Both the position numbers and the translations under genes were made by a program. A stretch of 64,000 nucleotides of DNA from Octopus vulgaris (taxonomy: Eukaryota), in assembly GCA_951406725.2 (NCBI GenBank), contig OX597816.1, forward strand, positions 61,752,001 through 61,816,000, written 5' to 3'. Below the pieces are notes generated by a model. That model searched no databases, was not told the origin of the DNA, and was given only the letters and a program-made list of their open reading frames with translations. How positions within the stretch are numbered: position 1 is the stretch's first letter; each line of letters opens with the position of its first letter. Below, one piece after another: positions 4,410 to 38,657 of this stretch.

Positions 4410-4560
4410 TCTTGTCTAACACAGGAAATTCGATGGAAATGTAACAAAGTGTCAGCTATCCGCAACCAGCGGTTTAAGGTAACACTTTTCATTCAGATTT
4501 TCAGAAGTCTCCTGGCAATTCCTGCAGTTCCAAGCAATAATATTTTCTGTAAATACTCTT
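4410..4560 (-). mobile_element. R4/Dong-like retrotransposon 3' fragment (family D)
   Basis: Minus strand encodes EYLQKILLLGTAGIARRLL, the LQK..LLGTA.I.R C-terminal motif of R4/Dong ORFs, followed by a distinct putative 3'UTR. Confidence 0.6.
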
Positions 4561-4750
4561 TCACTTCACTACCGAGCGCAGCTCCGTGTGCCTTGGGTAT
4601 GTGCTGTGATTTGTTGTGATGCTCTGATGGTTATTGTATGGAAAGTGTTCTGCGTAGGATGTGTGCAGTGCCTAGTAGTGCAATTTTCTGTATGTTATAT
4701 GTGTTTATAAGTCCTGGTGTTTTTGTTATGTATTTGTCTGAATATTTTTT
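4561..4750 (-). mobile_element. R4/Dong-like 3' fragment (family B, copy 1)
   Basis: Near-identical to 8741-8930; encodes KKYSDKYITKTPGLINTYNIQKIALLGTAHILRRTLSIQ*; its 5' end abuts (TAA)n. Confidence 0.9.
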
Positions 4751-4754
4751 CTGA

Positions 4755-4820
<66 letters not shown>
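4755..4820. repeat. (TAA)n/(ATT)n microsatellite
   Basis: Pure ATT run between Dong fragment B1 and element X. Confidence 0.95.
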
Positions 4821-5373
4821 GAGTGAGAGAGCAGTGCATGCCATCGAAGTGACACTGGGCTAAAATATACGAAGCCCAATATACCCATCATGACTACCCG
4901 TCTGATAAGGGTACACCAGGCACATGCATCACAACCATATGTGCGCGACATGGTGATCTCATATCAAGATTAACAGCACATGACCATGCAGGTGGGGCCC
5001 AGTTAGAATTTTCTTCAGGTTGAGTAGCCCATCCCGCTCAAAAGGTCCCTGAATAAGGGTTGTTTAAGGATGTTGAAAGAACCACCCATGTTTCCAGAGG
5101 TGAATTATTCAAACCCCAAAGAATCCTTCTCAACACATGGCTATGATGCTCCCCCACTACTTCTGCTCGTGATCAGAGATGCACATATCGTCAGCCACTA
5201 AGGGACATGCTCAACTGGTTAAGGTCAAACAACTGACAAGCAAATCTGTGGTATTGAGCAGAATATTTGCTGTAGTCCATCTTTTATACCAATACAAAAC
5301 AATGTACATGATAACACTTCCAATCAGTTAAGATCAAAAGCCATGAGAGCCACTGCCCGATACTGCATCAGGG

Positions 5374-5375
<2 letters not shown>
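4821..5375 (-). mobile_element. 555-bp non-coding retroposon-like element X (copy 1) embedded in (TAA)n
   Basis: Same ends and length as 38066-38620; flanked by (TAA)n on both sides; no substantial ORF; strand inferred from the truncated copy at 7701 and from (TAA)n polarity. Confidence 0.85.
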
Positions 5376-5441
<66 letters not shown>

Positions 5442-5452
5442 TTATTATTATT
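5376..5452. repeat. (TAA)n microsatellite
   Basis: ATT run between element X and the 3'UTR of Dong family A. Confidence 0.95.
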
Positions 5453-7601
5453 CTATGTTTGACTTTTGCTTTATGTCTGTACAAGTTGGCTCCAAGTCTC
5501 ACCCAGAGACCTCAAGAGACAACAGGTTGGAAGTTCTGTGCCATATATTTGGGTTTTTTTTTGTGTGTTGTACTAGTGAATGTCTAATACATAAAAATAA
5601 AATAAAATAAAAAAAATAAATAAAATAAAATAAAATAAATAAAAAAAAAGTTTGTTTTAAACCTTGGGATTACATAGGGAGTATTTTGCGTAGGATATGA
5701 GCAGTTCCCATGAGCACTCTCTTTTGAATTTCTGCCATTTTGGGGTTTCCTGGTATCTGAGTTAGGTAGCAATTAATCCCTTTCGCTATCATTCCCAGGG
5801 CACCTATGACAACAGCTATTGTTTTAGTCTTCAGCTTCCACATTTTGTTGATTTCTATTTCAAGATCTTTATTATTTGCTCAGTTTTTGGTAGGTCTTGA
5901 CAGATACGTTTATATCGATTGGGACAGTCATATCAATGAGGAGGCATGTTCTTTGTCTGAAGTCTTTCAATATGATGTCTGGCCTATTTGCATCTATCTT
6001 CCTGTCAGTTTGAATGGTGAAGTTCCAGAAGAGTGAGATGTGGTCATTTTCATGCACTGGAGGTGGATTGTGTTCCCACCAGTTTTTTTCATGGGGCAAA
6101 TCCAGGTTTTTGCAAATTACCCAGTGAATATATTGTGCAGCTCTATCATGCCTGTTGAGGTACTCTGTTGGCGCTAGAAGACTGCATTTGGAGACAACAT
6201 GATCAATGGTTTCATTTTGTTGTCGGCATACACGACATGTTGGGCTACTGCCGTTCTTTAATATGTTGGCCTGGTAGTTTCTTGTTGGTAGGCATTGATC
6301 TTGAGCTGCTATGATAAACTCCTCTGTTTCAGATTTTAAGCCAGAGGCCACTAGCCATTGATGGGTCAGGGCTTTGTCAATATCTGCATTATTCACTCTC
6401 TTTGGGTATTTGCCATAGAGAGGTTTTTCTTGCCATTTATTATTCAGAATATCTAAGGCCGCAGTTTTGGCACGGGTTTTCATGCGCTTAGCTTTTTCTG
6501 TGCTTGTTTCTTGTATGTCTATCTCTAATTCCGAAATTGGTTGTATTCGGAATTCACTTAGATATTCCTTTGCCTGTTTTGTGACTGAGTATGATGCTTT
6601 CTTGTTTTCATGTTTTGAGACAAGTTTTAACATCCAGTCCTCAGAGTTTTTCAGGTAGGTGTCTAGGCCAATTGTAGCAGTCTTCATTGTTATTGCCAGT
6701 TGTAAAAGACCACGGCCTCCCTCTTTTCTTGGCAGATAGAGTCGTTCTGTATCTGCCTTAGTGTGGTGCATTCTATGCATTGTCAACAGTTTCCTTATTT
6801 TTCTGTCGAGCTGACATATTTCAGTAATTGACCAGTTAATATTGAAACTGTAAGTCACGACTGGTATAGCTAATGCATTGATCACTTCGATCCTGTTTCT
6901 TGCATTCAGCTCTGTCTTGAGTATTGCTCTAACTCTTCGATAGCATTCTCTCCTGATCCTTTCCTTCATCTCTGAATGCCTTATTCCGTTCCCTTCAATT
7001 ACCCCTAGGTACTTGTAGCTCTCCGCTGGGTCTAGTTCTTTTATGACATTCTGCTGGTCAAGGTTAACGTTTGATGTTTCTGTCATTTTTCCTTTGATAA
7101 AGGTAGCTTTTGCACATTTATCGAGGCCGAATTGCATTCTGATGTCGTCACTGAATTGTTTGACTATCGCTAGTAAGCCCTTGAGTTGTTGGTCATTTTT
7201 TGCAAAAAGCTTTAAATCATCCATGTAAATGAGATGATTTATATTTTTATCAAACATTTTATACCCATACTGCGCATCATTGAGCAGCTTTGAGAGAGGT
7301 ATTAAGGATAAACAAAAGAGGAGTGGTGACAGTGAGTCACCCTGGAAAATGCCACACGAAAGTTTTACATCACCAGCAGTTAGGGATTCATTGTCACTGT
7401 TCAGAATTAGTGTGGTTCTCCATGATCTCATACTTACAGTCAAGAAGTTTCGCAGAGTAGGTGCTATCTTATACATTTCCAGGCATTTCCTAATCCAGCT
7501 ATGTGGTAGGCTATCAAAAGCCTTTTTATAGTCTATCCAGGCTATTGATAAGTTTTTGTGTCGTTTGTGACAATCTTCTAAGATCATCTTATTGATGAGT
7601 A

Positions 7602-7603
<2 letters not shown>
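5453..7603 (-). mobile_element. 5'-truncated R4/Dong-clade non-LTR retrotransposon (family A) inserted in (TAA)n
   Basis: RT, CCHC and RLE coding region plus about 215 bp of 3'UTR; bounded by (TAA)n on both sides. Confidence 0.93.
5670..7603 (-). pseudogene. Reverse transcriptase / CCHC zinc knuckle / restriction-like endonuclease (R4/Dong), N-terminally truncated, one frameshift
   Basis: Motifs WIDYKKAFDSLPH, GIFQGDSLSPLLF, YMDDLKL, YKYLG, GGRGL, CRVC-x5-ETIDHVVSKC, RHD, RPDII..D...LIDMTVP; a +1 insertion near 5872 makes a stop, and the ORF resumes as KDLEIEINKMWKL...LMGTAHILRKILPM* ending at 5670. Confidence 0.93.

Positions 7604-7700
<97 letters not shown>
7604..7700. repeat. (TAA)n microsatellite
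   Basis: Pure ATT run. Confidence 0.95.
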
Positions 7701-7919
7701 GAGTGAGAGAGCAGTGCATGCCATCAAAGTGACACTGGAGTACAAATATACCAAGCCCAGTATACCCATCATGACTACCCGTCTGATAAGGGTACACTGG
7801 GCACATGCATCACAACCATATGTGCGCCACATGCTGATCTCATTTCAAGATAAACAGCACATGACCTTGCAGGTGGGACCCAGTTAGAATTTTCTTTTGG
7901 TCGAGTAGCTCATCCCGCT
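7701..7919 (-). mobile_element. Element X, truncated copy retaining the (TAA)-adjacent end
   Basis: Matches 4821-5039 and starts at the same gagtgagagagcagtgc boundary directly after (ATT)n. Confidence 0.85.
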
Positions 7920-8140
7920 TTTTACCATCTTTATTTCATTTGTTTACTTTTTTTATTTCCCATTTTTCCTTTTTCTCTCTGTCTTCCCCCTTTTCTCTGT
8001 CACATGACTTTGTAAATGAGCAATCTGGTGTGTTTATTTCAATGGCCTACCAATGTTTATAGTACGTTTCTCTGGCCTACGTATCAGCAAGATACTCGGC
8101 AAGAAATGGAAAGAGAATTGAAAGAAGCTGCTAATGAAAA

Positions 8141-8257: not shown

Positions 8258-8459
8258 TCTCTACTATAGGTATAAGGCCCGAAATTTTGGGGATGGGGAC
8301 TAGTCGATTACATCAACTCCAGTGTTTCACTGGTATTTAATTTATCGACCCCGAAAGGATGAAAAGAAAATTCGACTTCGGCGGAATTTGAACTCAGAAC
8401 ATAAATATCACTGAGCGTATCGCCCGGGATGCTAACGATTCTACTATTTCGCCGCCTTA
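8258..8459 (-). mobile_element. SINE family 1
   Basis: Reverse complement shows the GGCGGCGA..AGAATCGTTAGC head, GAGTTCAAATTCC B-box, cctttcggggtcgataaa core and ggcctt.t.cctatagtagag tail. Confidence 0.8.
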
Positions 8460-8491
8460 ATGATGATGATGATGATGATGATATTATTATA

Positions 8492-8700
8492 AAGGTGGCG
8501 AGCTGACAGAATCGTTAGCCCCGCCGGAGAAATTGCTCAGCAGCATTTCGTCCGCCTTTACTTTCTGAGTTCAAATTCCACCGAGGTCGACTTTTCAGGT
8601 CGATTATATTAAGTACGCGTTGTGTACTGGTGTCAATATAATCGAATATCCACCTCCCCACAAATTCCAGGCCTTGTCCCTTAGTAGAAAGGATTGTTAT
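8492..8700 (+). mobile_element. SINE family 1
   Basis: Head ggtggcgagctgacagaatcgttagc (A-box like), B-box gagttcaaattcc, tail ggccttgtcccttagtagaaagg followed by (ATT)n. Confidence 0.8.
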
Positions 8701-8713
8701 TATTATTATTATT

Positions 8714-9600
8714 CAGTAGTTTTATTTTTATAGCGTGCTTTCACTTCACTACCGAGCGCAACTCTGTGTGTCTTGGGTATGTGTTGTGATTTGTTGTGAT
8801 GCTCTGATGGTTATTGTATGGAAAGTGTTCTGCGTAGGATGTGTGCGGTGCCTAGTAGTGCAATTTTCTGTATGTTATATGTGTTTGTGAGTCCTGGTGT
8901 TTTTATTATGTATTTGTCTGAATATTTTTTTATCATGCCTAATGCACCTACTATGATAGGAATTGTTTCTGTTTTCAGATTCCACATTCTGGTTACCTCT
9001 ATTTCCAGGTCTTTGTATTTTGAGAGTTTCTCCATTTCTTTTAGAGACACGTTGTCATCTGCCGGTATTGATACATCAATTAGAAAGCATTTTTTTCCTT
9101 CATGATCTCTGACAACTATATCTGGCCTGTTGGCCTTAATTTCTCTATCTGTGTGTATCGGCATATCCCAGAGTATGGTTGCTTTCTCGCTTTCTGTGAC
9201 CTTTTCTGGTGTGTGCCTATACCATCTTTTTTCTGTTGTTATTCCATAATGTTGGCATAGCTTCCAATGTATGTAGGTTCCAACTCTGTCATGTCTGTGA
9301 ATATATTCCTTCTTAGCCAGGACTGGGCAGCTAGAGATAATATGATTTATTGTTTCTTGTCCATCTCCACATATTCTGCAGTTACTTGTTATATTTCTTT
9401 TCATTACATGTTTTTGGTAATTTCTGGTGGGGAGGCTTTGGTCTTGTGCTGCAATTAAAAATCCCTGTTTCTGCTTTGAGTCCTGAGCTTCTCAACCATT
9501 GCTGGGATTTTTCTTTGTCTATTTCTTTTGCGTTTAGTTTAGACCAGTATTTACCATGAAGGGGCTTTTCTTGCCATCGTTTTACCATGGTTCGTTGCTG
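8714..9600 (-). mobile_element. 5'-truncated R4/Dong-like retrotransposon (family B, copy 2) in (TAA)n
   Basis: KPLHGKY...WL..SGLKAET (frameshift near 9460), CRICGDGQETINHIISSC, RHD, RPDIVVRD...LIDVSIP...EKLSKYKDL...LLGTAHILRRTLSIQ*, about 95 bp of 3'UTR, (TAA)n at both ends. Confidence 0.92.
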
Positions 9601-9880: not shown

Positions 9881-10250
9881 AAGGCGAGCACGCCGGGCAA
9901 AATGCTTAACAGCATTTCGTCTGCCGTTACGTTCTGAGTTCAAAATTCCGCCGAGGTCGACTTTGCCTTTCATCCTTTCGGGGTCAATAAATTAAGTACC
10001 AGTTACGCACTGAGTCGATATAATCGACTTAATCCGTTTGCCTGTCCTTGTTTGTCCTCTCTGTGTTTAGCCCCTTGTGGGTAGTAAAGAAATAGGTATT
10101 TCGTCCGTCTTTATGTTCTGAGTTCAAATTCCGCCGAGGTCGACCTTGCTTTTATCCGTTGGGACTGATAAAATAAATACCAGCTGATCAATGGCGTCAA
10201 TATAATCGACTTTTTCCTCCTGGTCTTGTGCCGCAATTTGAAACCACTAC
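9881..10250 (+). mobile_element. Tandem or nested pair of family 1 SINEs with different 3' tails
   Basis: First unit ends ...gccccttgtgggtagtaaagaaata (about 10095); the second resumes mid-element at ggtatttcgtc and ends ggtcttgtgccgcaatttgaaacca. Confidence 0.8.
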
Positions 10251-12488: not shown

Positions 12489-13327
12489 CAGGATGTGATG
12501 GGTAAATTGTCGCCATTTTATACTTTTAATTTCATGCATGTGCATTGTTTGTTTTCGATTTTGTCCACTACATATTATAGTAGGGTCAGTTCGACACCGT
12601 CTGTGAGAAAACAGCACCATGATGCAATTCACTCTGCCAGAAATTTGAAAACGACATGCTGAAATTCAGATACGAACAGATTGTGAACACAGAACAACCG
12701 TTGGCTTGCCGTCTCCTCCAAATATGTACCGAGAATGATAAAACTCAAACACCCAGTCAACATCATTGTTCTTGGAGTGATCACTAGTGATGGCGATGTT
12801 ATGCCTCCATTCATCTTACCAAGCAGTCTCAGACTCAACACAGTGTAGTGCTGTCCGGGGCGGGGTGGGGGAAGAGATTGACTGCTAGAAGACCCTATGT
12901 CTGGCAACGGGTCTCTGCATCATGCCACACAAGCAGGAGAAACCACCCATGGCTGTCAAACAATTTCTGCGACCACATTATCCTAATATCTATTTCTTTA
13001 CTACCCACAAGGGGCTAAGCACAGAGGGGACAAACAAGGACAGACAAACGGATTTAGTCGATTACATCGACCCCAGTGCATAACTGGTACTTACTTTATC
13101 GACCCCGAAAGGATGAAAGGCAAAGTCGACCTCAGCGGAATTTTATCCTAATATTATCCTAATATCTGGCCACCTATCTCCCCAGACTGCAACTTCCTTG
13201 ATTATTATGTCTGGGGCGCAGTTGAATGAAAGCGCAACAAAACACCTTGTAACACCAAAGATGAACTGCAGGGAAGAATTATGGTAGCATTCACCAACTT
13301 AAGAAGGAAACCGTCCAGAAGAGTTGT
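12489..13327 (+). mobile_element. Decayed, internally deleted Tc1/mariner (maT/DD37D-like) transposon interrupted by a SINE
   Basis: TA|CAGGATGT terminus; translated remnants NTQNNRWLA-like, KHPVNIIVLGVITSDGDVMPPFI, RPYVWQ..SA..H, WPPISPDCNFLDYYVWGAVE. Confidence 0.75.
12991..13143 (-). mobile_element. 5'-truncated family 1 SINE (Tx1-like tail) with target-site duplication
   Basis: Reverse complement of about 9945-10095; ttatcctaatat(c) is present on both sides, twice on the right. Confidence 0.85.
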
Positions 13328-33069: not shown

Positions 33070-33224
33070 TATGCCCAGTACCCCAGTTACTTACTTTGTC
33101 GACCTCAAAAGGATGAAAGGTAAAGTCGATCTCGGCGGAATTTGAACTCAGAACGCAAAGACGGACGAAATGCCGCTAAGCATTTTGCCCGGCGTGATAA
33201 CGATTCTGTCACCTCACCGCCTTT
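33070..33224 (-). mobile_element. SINE family 1
   Basis: Reverse complement of the family 1 head, B-box and core. Confidence 0.8.
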
Positions 33225-36376: not shown

Positions 36377-37963
36377 ACTCCCATTAGGCTGGCGTGGCTG
36401 ACAAGGAAATGTTGCCTTTATAACCATGTTGCTTTAAGCATATATTTATTAGGTTCATAGAAAAATGCTTCCAATTTCTGGGAGTGACATCACTGAACAC
36501 AGTTATTTTCCCTCTCATCTATGTGTGTGTGTGCATAAATGTATGCATAAAAACTATAGACAAAAAAATCAAGGTCTTAAAAAACTTATATGAATATTTA
36601 CATCAACGGCTGCAGAAGGCCACACTTGTTGACCCAGAAGGCCGCATGCAGCCTTGAGGCCGCAGATTCCCCATCCCTGAGCCATAATAACAACCACAAA
36701 TAGCGGATGGCGATCCACCAATCAATCAATTGATATGGTCAGCATATAATAGACTTCCCCGAAAATGACATTCTACGCATAAATACCACATTTGAACAGA
36801 GATTCAATTATCGCTGCTCTGGGTATTTTTAATGTCAAGCACCGACTCGGCAACATGTTTATAATTGAAATTGGTAAAACAGCTTCCTAATGTGTTAGGA
36901 GTTAGATCTGATCAGTGTATACCATAAATCAGGTTTCGTCTTCGCTTACGCTCCATCAAACGGAAAATTTCAAAATATCCTCTTCATGATTGGATACTCT
37001 CAGTAACGAAGGAATTTGTCAACAATACATCATCTTAATCAAAAACAGGTTAAGGTATTGCAAGCAGAAACTGAAGCCATTCTTCGAATGCAACAAATAA
37101 CAATTTTCTCACTTCTCATCAATAAACTGCAGAAGATAGATAGGCAGATCAAGCTGAATTTCCATCGGAACTAAAATAATCCCATAAGAGTCTTAAGCAA
37201 TTACTGGGAAGTGCAATCAATTGAATTGTGACACCTAATTAACATCAACCGAACCTTCTAGAACAAATATCACTAAATTGAAAAAAAAATCTGCAAAATC
37301 TTACACTTACGAAGTAAAACAACAGAAATTTATTGAAAACAAAATAGATTTGAACGTTCATGCAGCTGCAAATAAACAATCTTCTCTGGTATAGCAAATT
37401 GCTAAATGAAATTAATGACAGTAGAAACAAGAATAAGTTGGAACTAAATACTCCATGTTTGCGGGAACTACCAAACAAGTGGAAGGAAGATTTACAGAAC
37501 ATTCTTGCTAACCCCGCGCCCAGTTTTTCAGATATACCTACAGAAGGTATTATTAATCATGGTCTCGACGCAAGATTGGTGTTTTTACATTAGATAAATT
37601 CGCTGACTAAATGGTAAGGACGAACAACAGGAAGAGAACTGATATCGATAATACATTACAAGAAGTTTGGAAGAAAGAAACATTAATATTTCATATCCCG
37701 CTTCAGTGCTGTTCAGGAAAATAAATTATAAAAAAATTATTGCTGAACTATATTTAGTTAATGTTCGAAACGATCATTATGAAGACTCCAAAATGGTTTC
37801 AAGAAATATCAGTCTATTGAAGGAGAGACATTAAACATTAAAAGAGCAACTGAGGCAGTCATTGAAAAACTCGAAAGTTGACAACTCAAAAGATTTCGAC
37901 TCAACTGATGTGAAGTGAAGAAAGCTCATTCTTATATACAGTACGTTAAGTATTATTATTATT

Positions 37964-38002
<39 letters not shown>

Positions 38003-38006
38003 ATTA

Positions 38007-38065
<59 letters not shown>

Positions 38066-38620
38066 GAGTGAGAGAGCAGTGCATGCCATCGAAGTGACAC
38101 TGGGCTAAAATATAGCAAGTCCAGTATACCCAACATGACTACCCGTCTGATAAGGGTACACCAGGCACATGTATCACAACCAAACGTGCGCGACATGGTG
38201 ATCTCATATCAAAATAAACAGCGCATGACCTTGCAGGTGGGGCCCAGTTAGAATTTTCTTCTGGTCGAGTAGCCCATCCCGCTCAAAAGGTCCCTGAATA
38301 AGAATTGTTTAAGGATGTTGAACGAACTACCCATGTTTCCAGAGGTGAATTATCCGAATCTCCAAGAATTCCTCTCAACACACGGCTATGATGCTCCCCA
38401 ACTACTTCTGCTCGTGATCAGAGATGCACATATCGTCAGCCACTAAGGGACATGCTCAACTGGTTAAGGTCAAACAACTGACAAGCAAATCTGTGGTATT
38501 GAGCAGAATATTTGCTGTAGCTCATCTTTTATACCAAGACAAAACAATGTACATGAAAACACTTCCAATCAGTTAAGATCAGGAGCCATGAGAGCCACTG
38601 TCTGGTACTGGATCAGGGCA
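38066..38620 (-). mobile_element. 555-bp element X (copy 3) embedded in (TAA)n
   Basis: Colinear with 4821-5375 with identical termini; (ATT)n on both sides. Confidence 0.85.
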
Positions 38621-38624
38621 TTTA

Positions 38625-38657
<33 letters not shown>

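Follow-up and report, generated by a model that had tools for sequence, protein, structure and literature searches.

A 555-Base Non-Coding Retroposon of Octopus (TAA)n Tracts, Probably Mobilized in Trans by Dong/R4 Elements

We describe here a dispersed element of the Octopus vulgaris genome, hereinafter called X, that we interpret, with a probability of roughly 0.8, as a 555-base, non-coding, high-copy retroposon of (TAA)n tracts, copied via RNA by the RT and the restriction-like endonuclease (RLE) of Dong/R4 elements acting in trans. This interpretation had been advanced in an earlier note on the same DNA and is supported by the TAA target, the polarity of truncation, a chimera between 5S rRNA and X, and repeats of the X head. 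Indeed, a fixed 3' end, 5' truncation, the 5S-X chimera, and head repeats in common with Dong together point to TPRT by co-resident Dong/R4 elements.

Results

Copies of X in the Window

The window, that is, the whole stretch of 64,000 nucleotides analyzed (contig OX597816.1), harbors three copies of X, whose sense strand is the minus strand of the window and whose positions are numbered from 1 to 555 in the 5' to 3' direction of that strand. The coordinates previously assigned to the two full copies, 4821–5375 and 38066–38620, were reproduced: both are 555 bp long, have identical termini, share 93.3% identity, and show 98.2% and 94.4% identity, respectively, to the family majority sequence. 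The first lies between a (TAA)n tract past its 3' end (4755–4820) and another ahead of its 5' end (5376–5452), the latter doubling as the 3' flank of an element of the Dong family B; the second lies between a (TAA)n/(CAA)n tract past its 3' end (37951–38065) and a (TAA)n tract ahead of its 5' end (38622–38657). The third copy (7701–7919) retains, as had been noticed, only the 3' portion (X positions 338–555) followed by (AAT)n, and a (TAA)n tract (7603–7700) separates it from a 5'-truncated Dong-B (5453–7602, minus strand) embedding the RT, the zinc knuckle, the RLE region, and the 3' UTR. Its 5' side has no TAA and abuts, head to head, an old Dong-C-like 3' UTR fragment on the opposite strand (7920–8140, plus strand), so that a later deletion is a more likely origin of this break than a truncation during TPRT. 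The minus strand also carries a 5'-truncated Dong-A (8714–9600) and a small Dong-A fragment (4558–4754); families A and B are both candidate helpers. X and its Dong neighbors do have the same polarity, since (AAT)n follows the 3' end of each of the three minus-strand copies, as it does in the Dong elements at 5453–7602 and 8714–9600. The window also contains SINE copies, which we take to be of the tRNA/CORE type, often abutting TAA tracts (8301–8645, 9889–10212, 12985–13144, and 33088–33224).

Abundance and Divergence

The exact 22-mers of the 3' and 5' ends of X occur 7,757 and 6,365 times, respectively, in the genome (none for the reversed controls), and these counts are underestimates, the exact tail word being present in just 1 of 30 loci anchored on the head. 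A profile search of sixty 10-kb stretches (600 kb), whose round coordinates were picked blind, recovered 21 X matches in 13 of them, covering 0.88% of the bases. The extrapolation of this blind sample to the whole genome of 2.8 Gb gives about 9.8 × 10^4 pieces (bootstrap 4.7 × 10^4 to 1.7 × 10^5), where pieces and not insertions are counted, as some matches are parts of one insertion. Among the 131 starts of (AAT)n tracts in the same sample, 12 are preceded on their 5' side by X, more than by any other dispersed sequence (Dong-C, 7; Dong-A, 5). X copies range in divergence from 0.5% to about 22%.

Other repeats besides X also sit at TAA tracts. These include a short tRNA-like element, negative with ARAGORN, that ends at (AAT)n (L224:115-240 and L265) and is possibly a second TAA-associated non-autonomous family, and a local tandem satellite of 27 units of about 370 bp, each closing with an AAT tract (L303).

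Near-identical X sequences were found in sequencing runs carrying five organism labels (78–87% of the sampled words), with all 30 bins of X covered in the four labelled datasets examined out of five. RNA runs labelled as insect, marine, and termite metagenome contain small shares of X; in the four examined, X pieces are numerous and divergent, and their flanks differ. These X reads are likely due to cross-contamination and hence are no evidence on host range or expression. The single scan of metagenome contigs with a 19-mer of X gave no matches.

Target, Polarity, and Ends

The association of X with TAA exceeds chance. We called a flank AAT-rich when it had at least three in-phase AAT per 30 nt; by this measure 29 of 30 flanks on the 3' side and 27 of 30 on the 5' side qualify, the background being about 1.1%. 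The blind sample agrees with this genome-wide picture, as AAT repeats follow all 16 of the 3'-intact matches. Thirteen of those 16 pieces are 5'-truncated. Thus, of the "fixed-end" character attributed to X in the earlier note, the 3' end holds and the 5' end does not, as it varies by truncation.

This truncation is polar, with TAA usually found at the break. Among 30 loci anchored on the X tail, 13 are 5'-truncated; in 10 of these the break lies at TAA, and 2 are joined to Dong coding sequence. Of 30 loci anchored on the head, 28 extend to the 3' end (two pairs are probably duplicates). Direct fusions of 5'-truncated X to Dong coding sequence of the endonuclease region are seen at L031 and L057 (an insertion or a template switch). 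When all loci were pooled, TAA was found upstream of 43 of 66 5'-truncated copies (17 of these 66 came from loci selected by pattern in the exact-hairpin search for a helper described below) and downstream of 2 of 14 3'-broken ones. The presence of TAA at 5' breaks and its rarity at 3' breaks is the asymmetry that TPRT would give. A target-site duplication is unreadable within a microsatellite; the junctions can be compared by phase, and AATAAT is found at the 3' junction of 105 of 152 X end-motif matches and of 62 of 74 Dong-A ones, so X and Dong-A end in one shared phase.

The 5' end of X is a true terminus. A pattern formed by the exact X head, preceded by bases other than A at −1 and −2 and other than T at −13, gave only 60 matches, whose 13 upstream bases are X head repeats in 26 cases, TAA-like in 25, TTA in 1, and other in 8. 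So few heads lack a TAA-type upstream sequence that a longer parent is not supported: nothing extends the 5' end, and no upstream sequence recurs among the 60 listed heads, except for one pair representing a segmental duplicate.

Signatures of Reverse Transcription

Tandem repeats of the first 17–68 nt are found in X, in Dong-A (L091 and L096), and in Dong-B (L228). In X they occur in 4 of 30 loci of one set and in none of the 30 loci anchored on the exact 5'-end 22-mer, and they account for the above 26 of 60 listed heads lacking A at −1/−2. One locus (L216, C1:30147500-30149600) carries about 14 tandem 68-nt heads, with a private change common to the heads and to their own body. At another locus (L249:1384-2050), downstream of a Dong-C tail, a TAA tract is followed by a complete 5S rRNA (96.6 bits) with its T-run, a full X copy, and TAA again. 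The most plausible reading of this fusion of 5S rRNA to the X head, a single case, is a template jump, which implies an RNA intermediate, and a chimera of this type could seed a 5S-headed SINE. Template jumps of R2 to small RNAs have been reported in vivo (PMC3414825). The polarity of 5' truncation, the chimera, and the head repeats all fit TPRT by a Dong-type RT. X has the target and the polarity of Dong, with the 5' truncation and the template jump of a Dong partner.

Dong Families and the Search for a Helper

The Dong-A, Dong-B, and Dong-C families, which occupy the same tracts as X, have intact ORFs of 1,200–1,300 aa; Dong-A carries RT and zinc-knuckle domains, and its match to R2 structures has E ~1e-36. 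We assign these families to Dong because of the RT and zinc-knuckle domains, the R2 structure match, and the TAA target, in agreement with the available descriptions of Dong (PMC3812793, PMC1635306). The loci around X are rich in Dong/R4 pieces with 13 distinct 3' UTR types. Dong-C has a 5' UTR longer than 1.3 kb with internal repeats, and a GAT-rich block is common to the UTRs of Dong-B and Dong-C; intact ORFs are numerous at these loci (L205-L215 and L222-L233).

The dissimilarity between the 3' end of X and the Dong 3' UTRs, which had been pointed out for the window, was also found in a wider comparison: BLAST revealed no similarity of X to the heads of Dong-A and Dong-B, to 1.3 kb of the Dong-C 5' UTR, or to the 3' UTRs of the three families, and tblastn of the Dong-A protein against X gave nothing. 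Neither a helper-derived 5' end nor identity to a helper 3' UTR, as in SIDEs, was thus observed among the Dong families sampled. A search for the exact X hairpin preceded by non-X sequence, which would miss a diverged helper tail, gave 64 matches; of these, 30 were examined, and all turned out to be X in truncated or mutated form, with no coding family among them. Dong-F was rejected as a current helper, its copies being only decayed ones (longest frame 366 aa among the 150 matches listed). An HDV ribozyme is known at the 5' end of the silkworm Dong (PMC3774820), but visual inspection of the heads of Dong-A and Dong-B revealed none.

RNA Fold and 3' Hairpin

The sense strand of the majority sequence has a predicted fold with z = −4.35 (none of 60 shuffles as low), against z = +1.03 for the antisense; for the first copy of the window the sense value is −2.58. 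Three domains are predicted, i.e., positions 1–101, 113–215, and 218–554, the first (5275–5375 in the window, minus strand) being a long hairpin with a 4-bp closing stem and the third pairing the 3' end with positions 218–229.

The Dong 3' UTRs, otherwise unalignable (~13 types), have in common a small hairpin (e.g., at 5453–5530 and 8714–8790 of the window) with a short A-ending leader, a 6-bp stem, and a 5–6-nt loop containing G, 48–102 nt from the end, which we regard as a candidate recognition element of the R4 clade. A model trained on Dong only, hand-anchored after the likeness had been noticed and in this sense post hoc, finds its best X match at position 465, 91 nt from the end (10.6 bits; Dong leave-one-out from −4.7 to 26.6), a score reached by 28 of 1500 shuffles of the last 130 nt and by 41 of 400 shuffles of the whole X. 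These values are only suggestive of a Dong-like 3' hairpin at positions 465–491 (4885–4911, minus strand).

Positions 102–271 (5105–5274, minus strand) are also present, with 277 exact 23-mers, within a MITE of about 480 bp found elsewhere in the genome. This MITE (centre of L128-L142) ends in CACTG...CAGTG, its inverted arms are long and imperfect, 3 bp of TAA/TTA apparently flank it, and its copies are 7–15% from their own majority sequence. Since the segment 218–271 pairs with sequence present only in X, it is more likely that the MITE captured 102–271 from X than the reverse.

Discussion

Stasis of the Sequence and a Possible Host RNA

The masters reconstructed from old (<90%, n = 30) and young (at least 96%, n = 63) copies differ at 6 of 555 sites, and hardly any diagnostic change is common to the oldest copies, which are 78–88% identical to the majority sequence. 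On this basis, the change of the master amounts to about 1–3%, against a decay of 12–20% in its copies, and this implies a strong constraint. The variants keeping the predicted pairing are 14 of 20 vs. 58% expected, which is not clearly structure-preserving. An imprint of A-to-I editing was considered and discarded, A>G changes (235/16,044) and T>C changes (262/21,629, sense) differing by a 1.2-fold excess no larger than that of other pairs.

One might suppose that the constraint is that of a host gene, X copies being retrocopies of a conserved structured RNA of the host picked up by Dong, with the same mechanism of integration, and not the products of a selfish lineage having numerous active sources. 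The stasis just described, the strong fold limited to the sense strand, and the near-identity of X under five organism labels would fit such an origin. However, X has no Rfam family, unrelated sequence precedes only 8 of the 60 heads lacking A at −1/−2, and variants common to 10–49% of the copies suggest several source lineages; hence, we consider a host RNA gene quite unlikely.

Class Assignment

In agreement with the earlier note, X has no substantial ORF (the longest ATG-ORFs are of 35 aa in sense and 50 aa in antisense), no terminal inverted repeat, which sets it apart from MITEs, and no good pair of A and B boxes. It is short and non-coding, with a fixed 3' end and a simple-repeat tail, as SINEs are. 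That X is an ordinary pol III SINE, whose head would have degenerated from a tRNA or a 5S rRNA and whose tail would be of the Dong type, might be favored by a few A-box-like bases at positions 9–20 and by the ~900 young SINE families that automated annotation assigns to octopus (PMC13282606). Nevertheless, we found in X neither an ARAGORN, Rfam, or tRNA match, nor a suitably placed B-box, nor a tRNA, 5S, or 7SL head with internal promoter boxes, and runs of four T interrupt it at 77, 333, and 511, all of which makes this origin very unlikely.

Just as unlikely is a mobilization by an RTE or a Penelope-like (GIY-YIG) element with a similar preference for AT-rich repeats. Both types are abundant in octopus, and a repeat with a visible hammerhead core, below the Rfam gathering threshold in the loci tried and presumably Penelope-like, often begins right after TAA/CAA tracts (L043, L051, L084, L199, L251, and others). 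X, in contrast, has no complete hammerhead core (no Rfam hit, and two CUGANGA words without a fitting stem II, which also separates it from retrozymes), is flanked by TAA on both sides with a fixed polarity, and shares the 3' phase and the head repeats with Dong.

Lastly, the idea that X is a solo LTR (or TRIM), readable as TG...CA given that it begins with TG and that an A follows the final C, or else an autonomous element's long 3' UTR, is largely refuted: truncation is polar, affecting the 5' side and leaving TAA at the break; no internal region or recurring upstream sequence is present in 30 + 30 + 30 loci and 60 listed heads; and none of the 30 hairpin matches examined, out of 64, has a coding family ahead of it.

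A Model for the Mobilization of X

Based on the proposed mobilization of X by Dong/R4, a Dong protein would nick a TAA tract and reverse transcription would be primed on the 3' end of the X RNA, probably extended by read-through into UAA repeats lying downstream; the RNA would be copied from 3' to 5', often incompletely, with an occasional template jump (the 5S-X chimera) or re-copying of the head (the tandem heads). Recognition of the X RNA would likely rely on structure rather than on a common sequence, possibly via the hairpin that resembles those of Dong and lies 91 nt before the 3' end. The weakest step is the origin of this RNA, for which an internal pol II start or the processing of read-through transcripts appears likelier than a pol III SINE promoter; a discrete transcript of X did not come to light.

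It is tempting to go further and to imagine X as a new parasitic structured RNA, deriving neither from a small RNA nor from a LINE end, which has hardly changed over tens of millions of years because it needs its whole fold, and which mimics the Dong 3' hairpin for successive Dong families and excises itself from read-through transcripts by an undescribed 5' ribozyme. As a whole this scenario is speculative, and we judge it rather unlikely. Regarding ribozymes, a strict descriptor of the canonical HDV ribozyme gave 0 hits in X, and relaxed hits fell on both strands, with more on the antisense (5 and 32).

X in the Octopus Genome

The published annotation of O. vulgaris repeats counts 5 Dong-R4 families as young, with 1,129 insertions, and leaves 893 SINE families unclassified; its list of Dong-R4 families has 51 entries, and the parts of it covered here make no mention of a Dong partner (PMC13282606). 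X may be among these 893 young unclassified SINE families or the 58 unknown octopus families of that annotation (PMC13282606). Being so abundant, its sequence is probably already present, unlabelled, in automated octopus repeat libraries. Neither an X-Dong partnership nor words of the X sequence were found in the literature searched, outside of which lie curated repeat databases and subscription journals. X would explain some of the TAA microsatellites and some of the "unclassified SINE" sequence of octopus genomes. It also lends itself to testing by what means R4/Dong proteins select RNAs in trans without a common tail, an issue that bears on the use of RLE retrotransposons as tools for targeted insertion.

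Comparison with Known Systems

The octopus tRNA/CORE-SINEs are, like X, short and very abundant, but X has no tRNA head (PMC13282606, PMC8967140). The Dong/Rex6 elements of the R4 clade share with X the TAA target and the polarity; unlike X, they are autonomous, about 4–5 kb long, and encode RT-RLE (PMC3812793, PMC1635306, PMC3774820). The octopus-type Dong elements described here also have in common with X the 3' junction phase, the 5' truncation, and the head repeats. Bipartite non-autonomous LINEs are, like X, non-autonomous, ORF-free, and likely transcribed by pol II, and a 2018 survey gives RTE, Ingi, Vingi, and R2 as their only sources (PMC5786205); no bipartite identity to the 5' and 3' ends of a LINE was seen in X.

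A close functional parallel is with the R2 SIDEs of Drosophila, already brought up in the earlier note. Like X, they are short (R2Dwi_SIDE is 529 bp), non-coding, and site-specific; as we propose for X, they are not transcribed by pol III and are mobilized in trans by an RLE protein, but they keep an HDV ribozyme, have 64–81% identity to the ends of their helper, and insert into the 28S rDNA (PMC3414825). The analogy therefore holds for function and not for a common 5' ribozyme or 3' UTR sequence: neither an HDV ribozyme nor identity to helper ends was found in X, whose target is (TAA)n and whose pieces number about 10^5.

A second parallel comes from Entamoeba histolytica, where EhLINE1 is placed in the R4 clade and EhSINE1 has a tail in common with EhLINE1. 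X, on the contrary, is TAA-specific and no tail common with Dong was found. EhSINE1 is, as X would be, a 500–600-bp ORF-less partner of a LINE with a restriction-like endonuclease; unlike X, it is untargeted, polyadenylated, present in a few hundred copies, and hosted by a protist (PMC2996970, PMC1635306). X resembles SIDEs and EhSINE1 in its working but is neither. The known partners of RLE elements are either low-copy (SIDEs) or untargeted (EhSINEs), whereas X would be a microsatellite-targeted one that has grown to about 1% of an animal genome.
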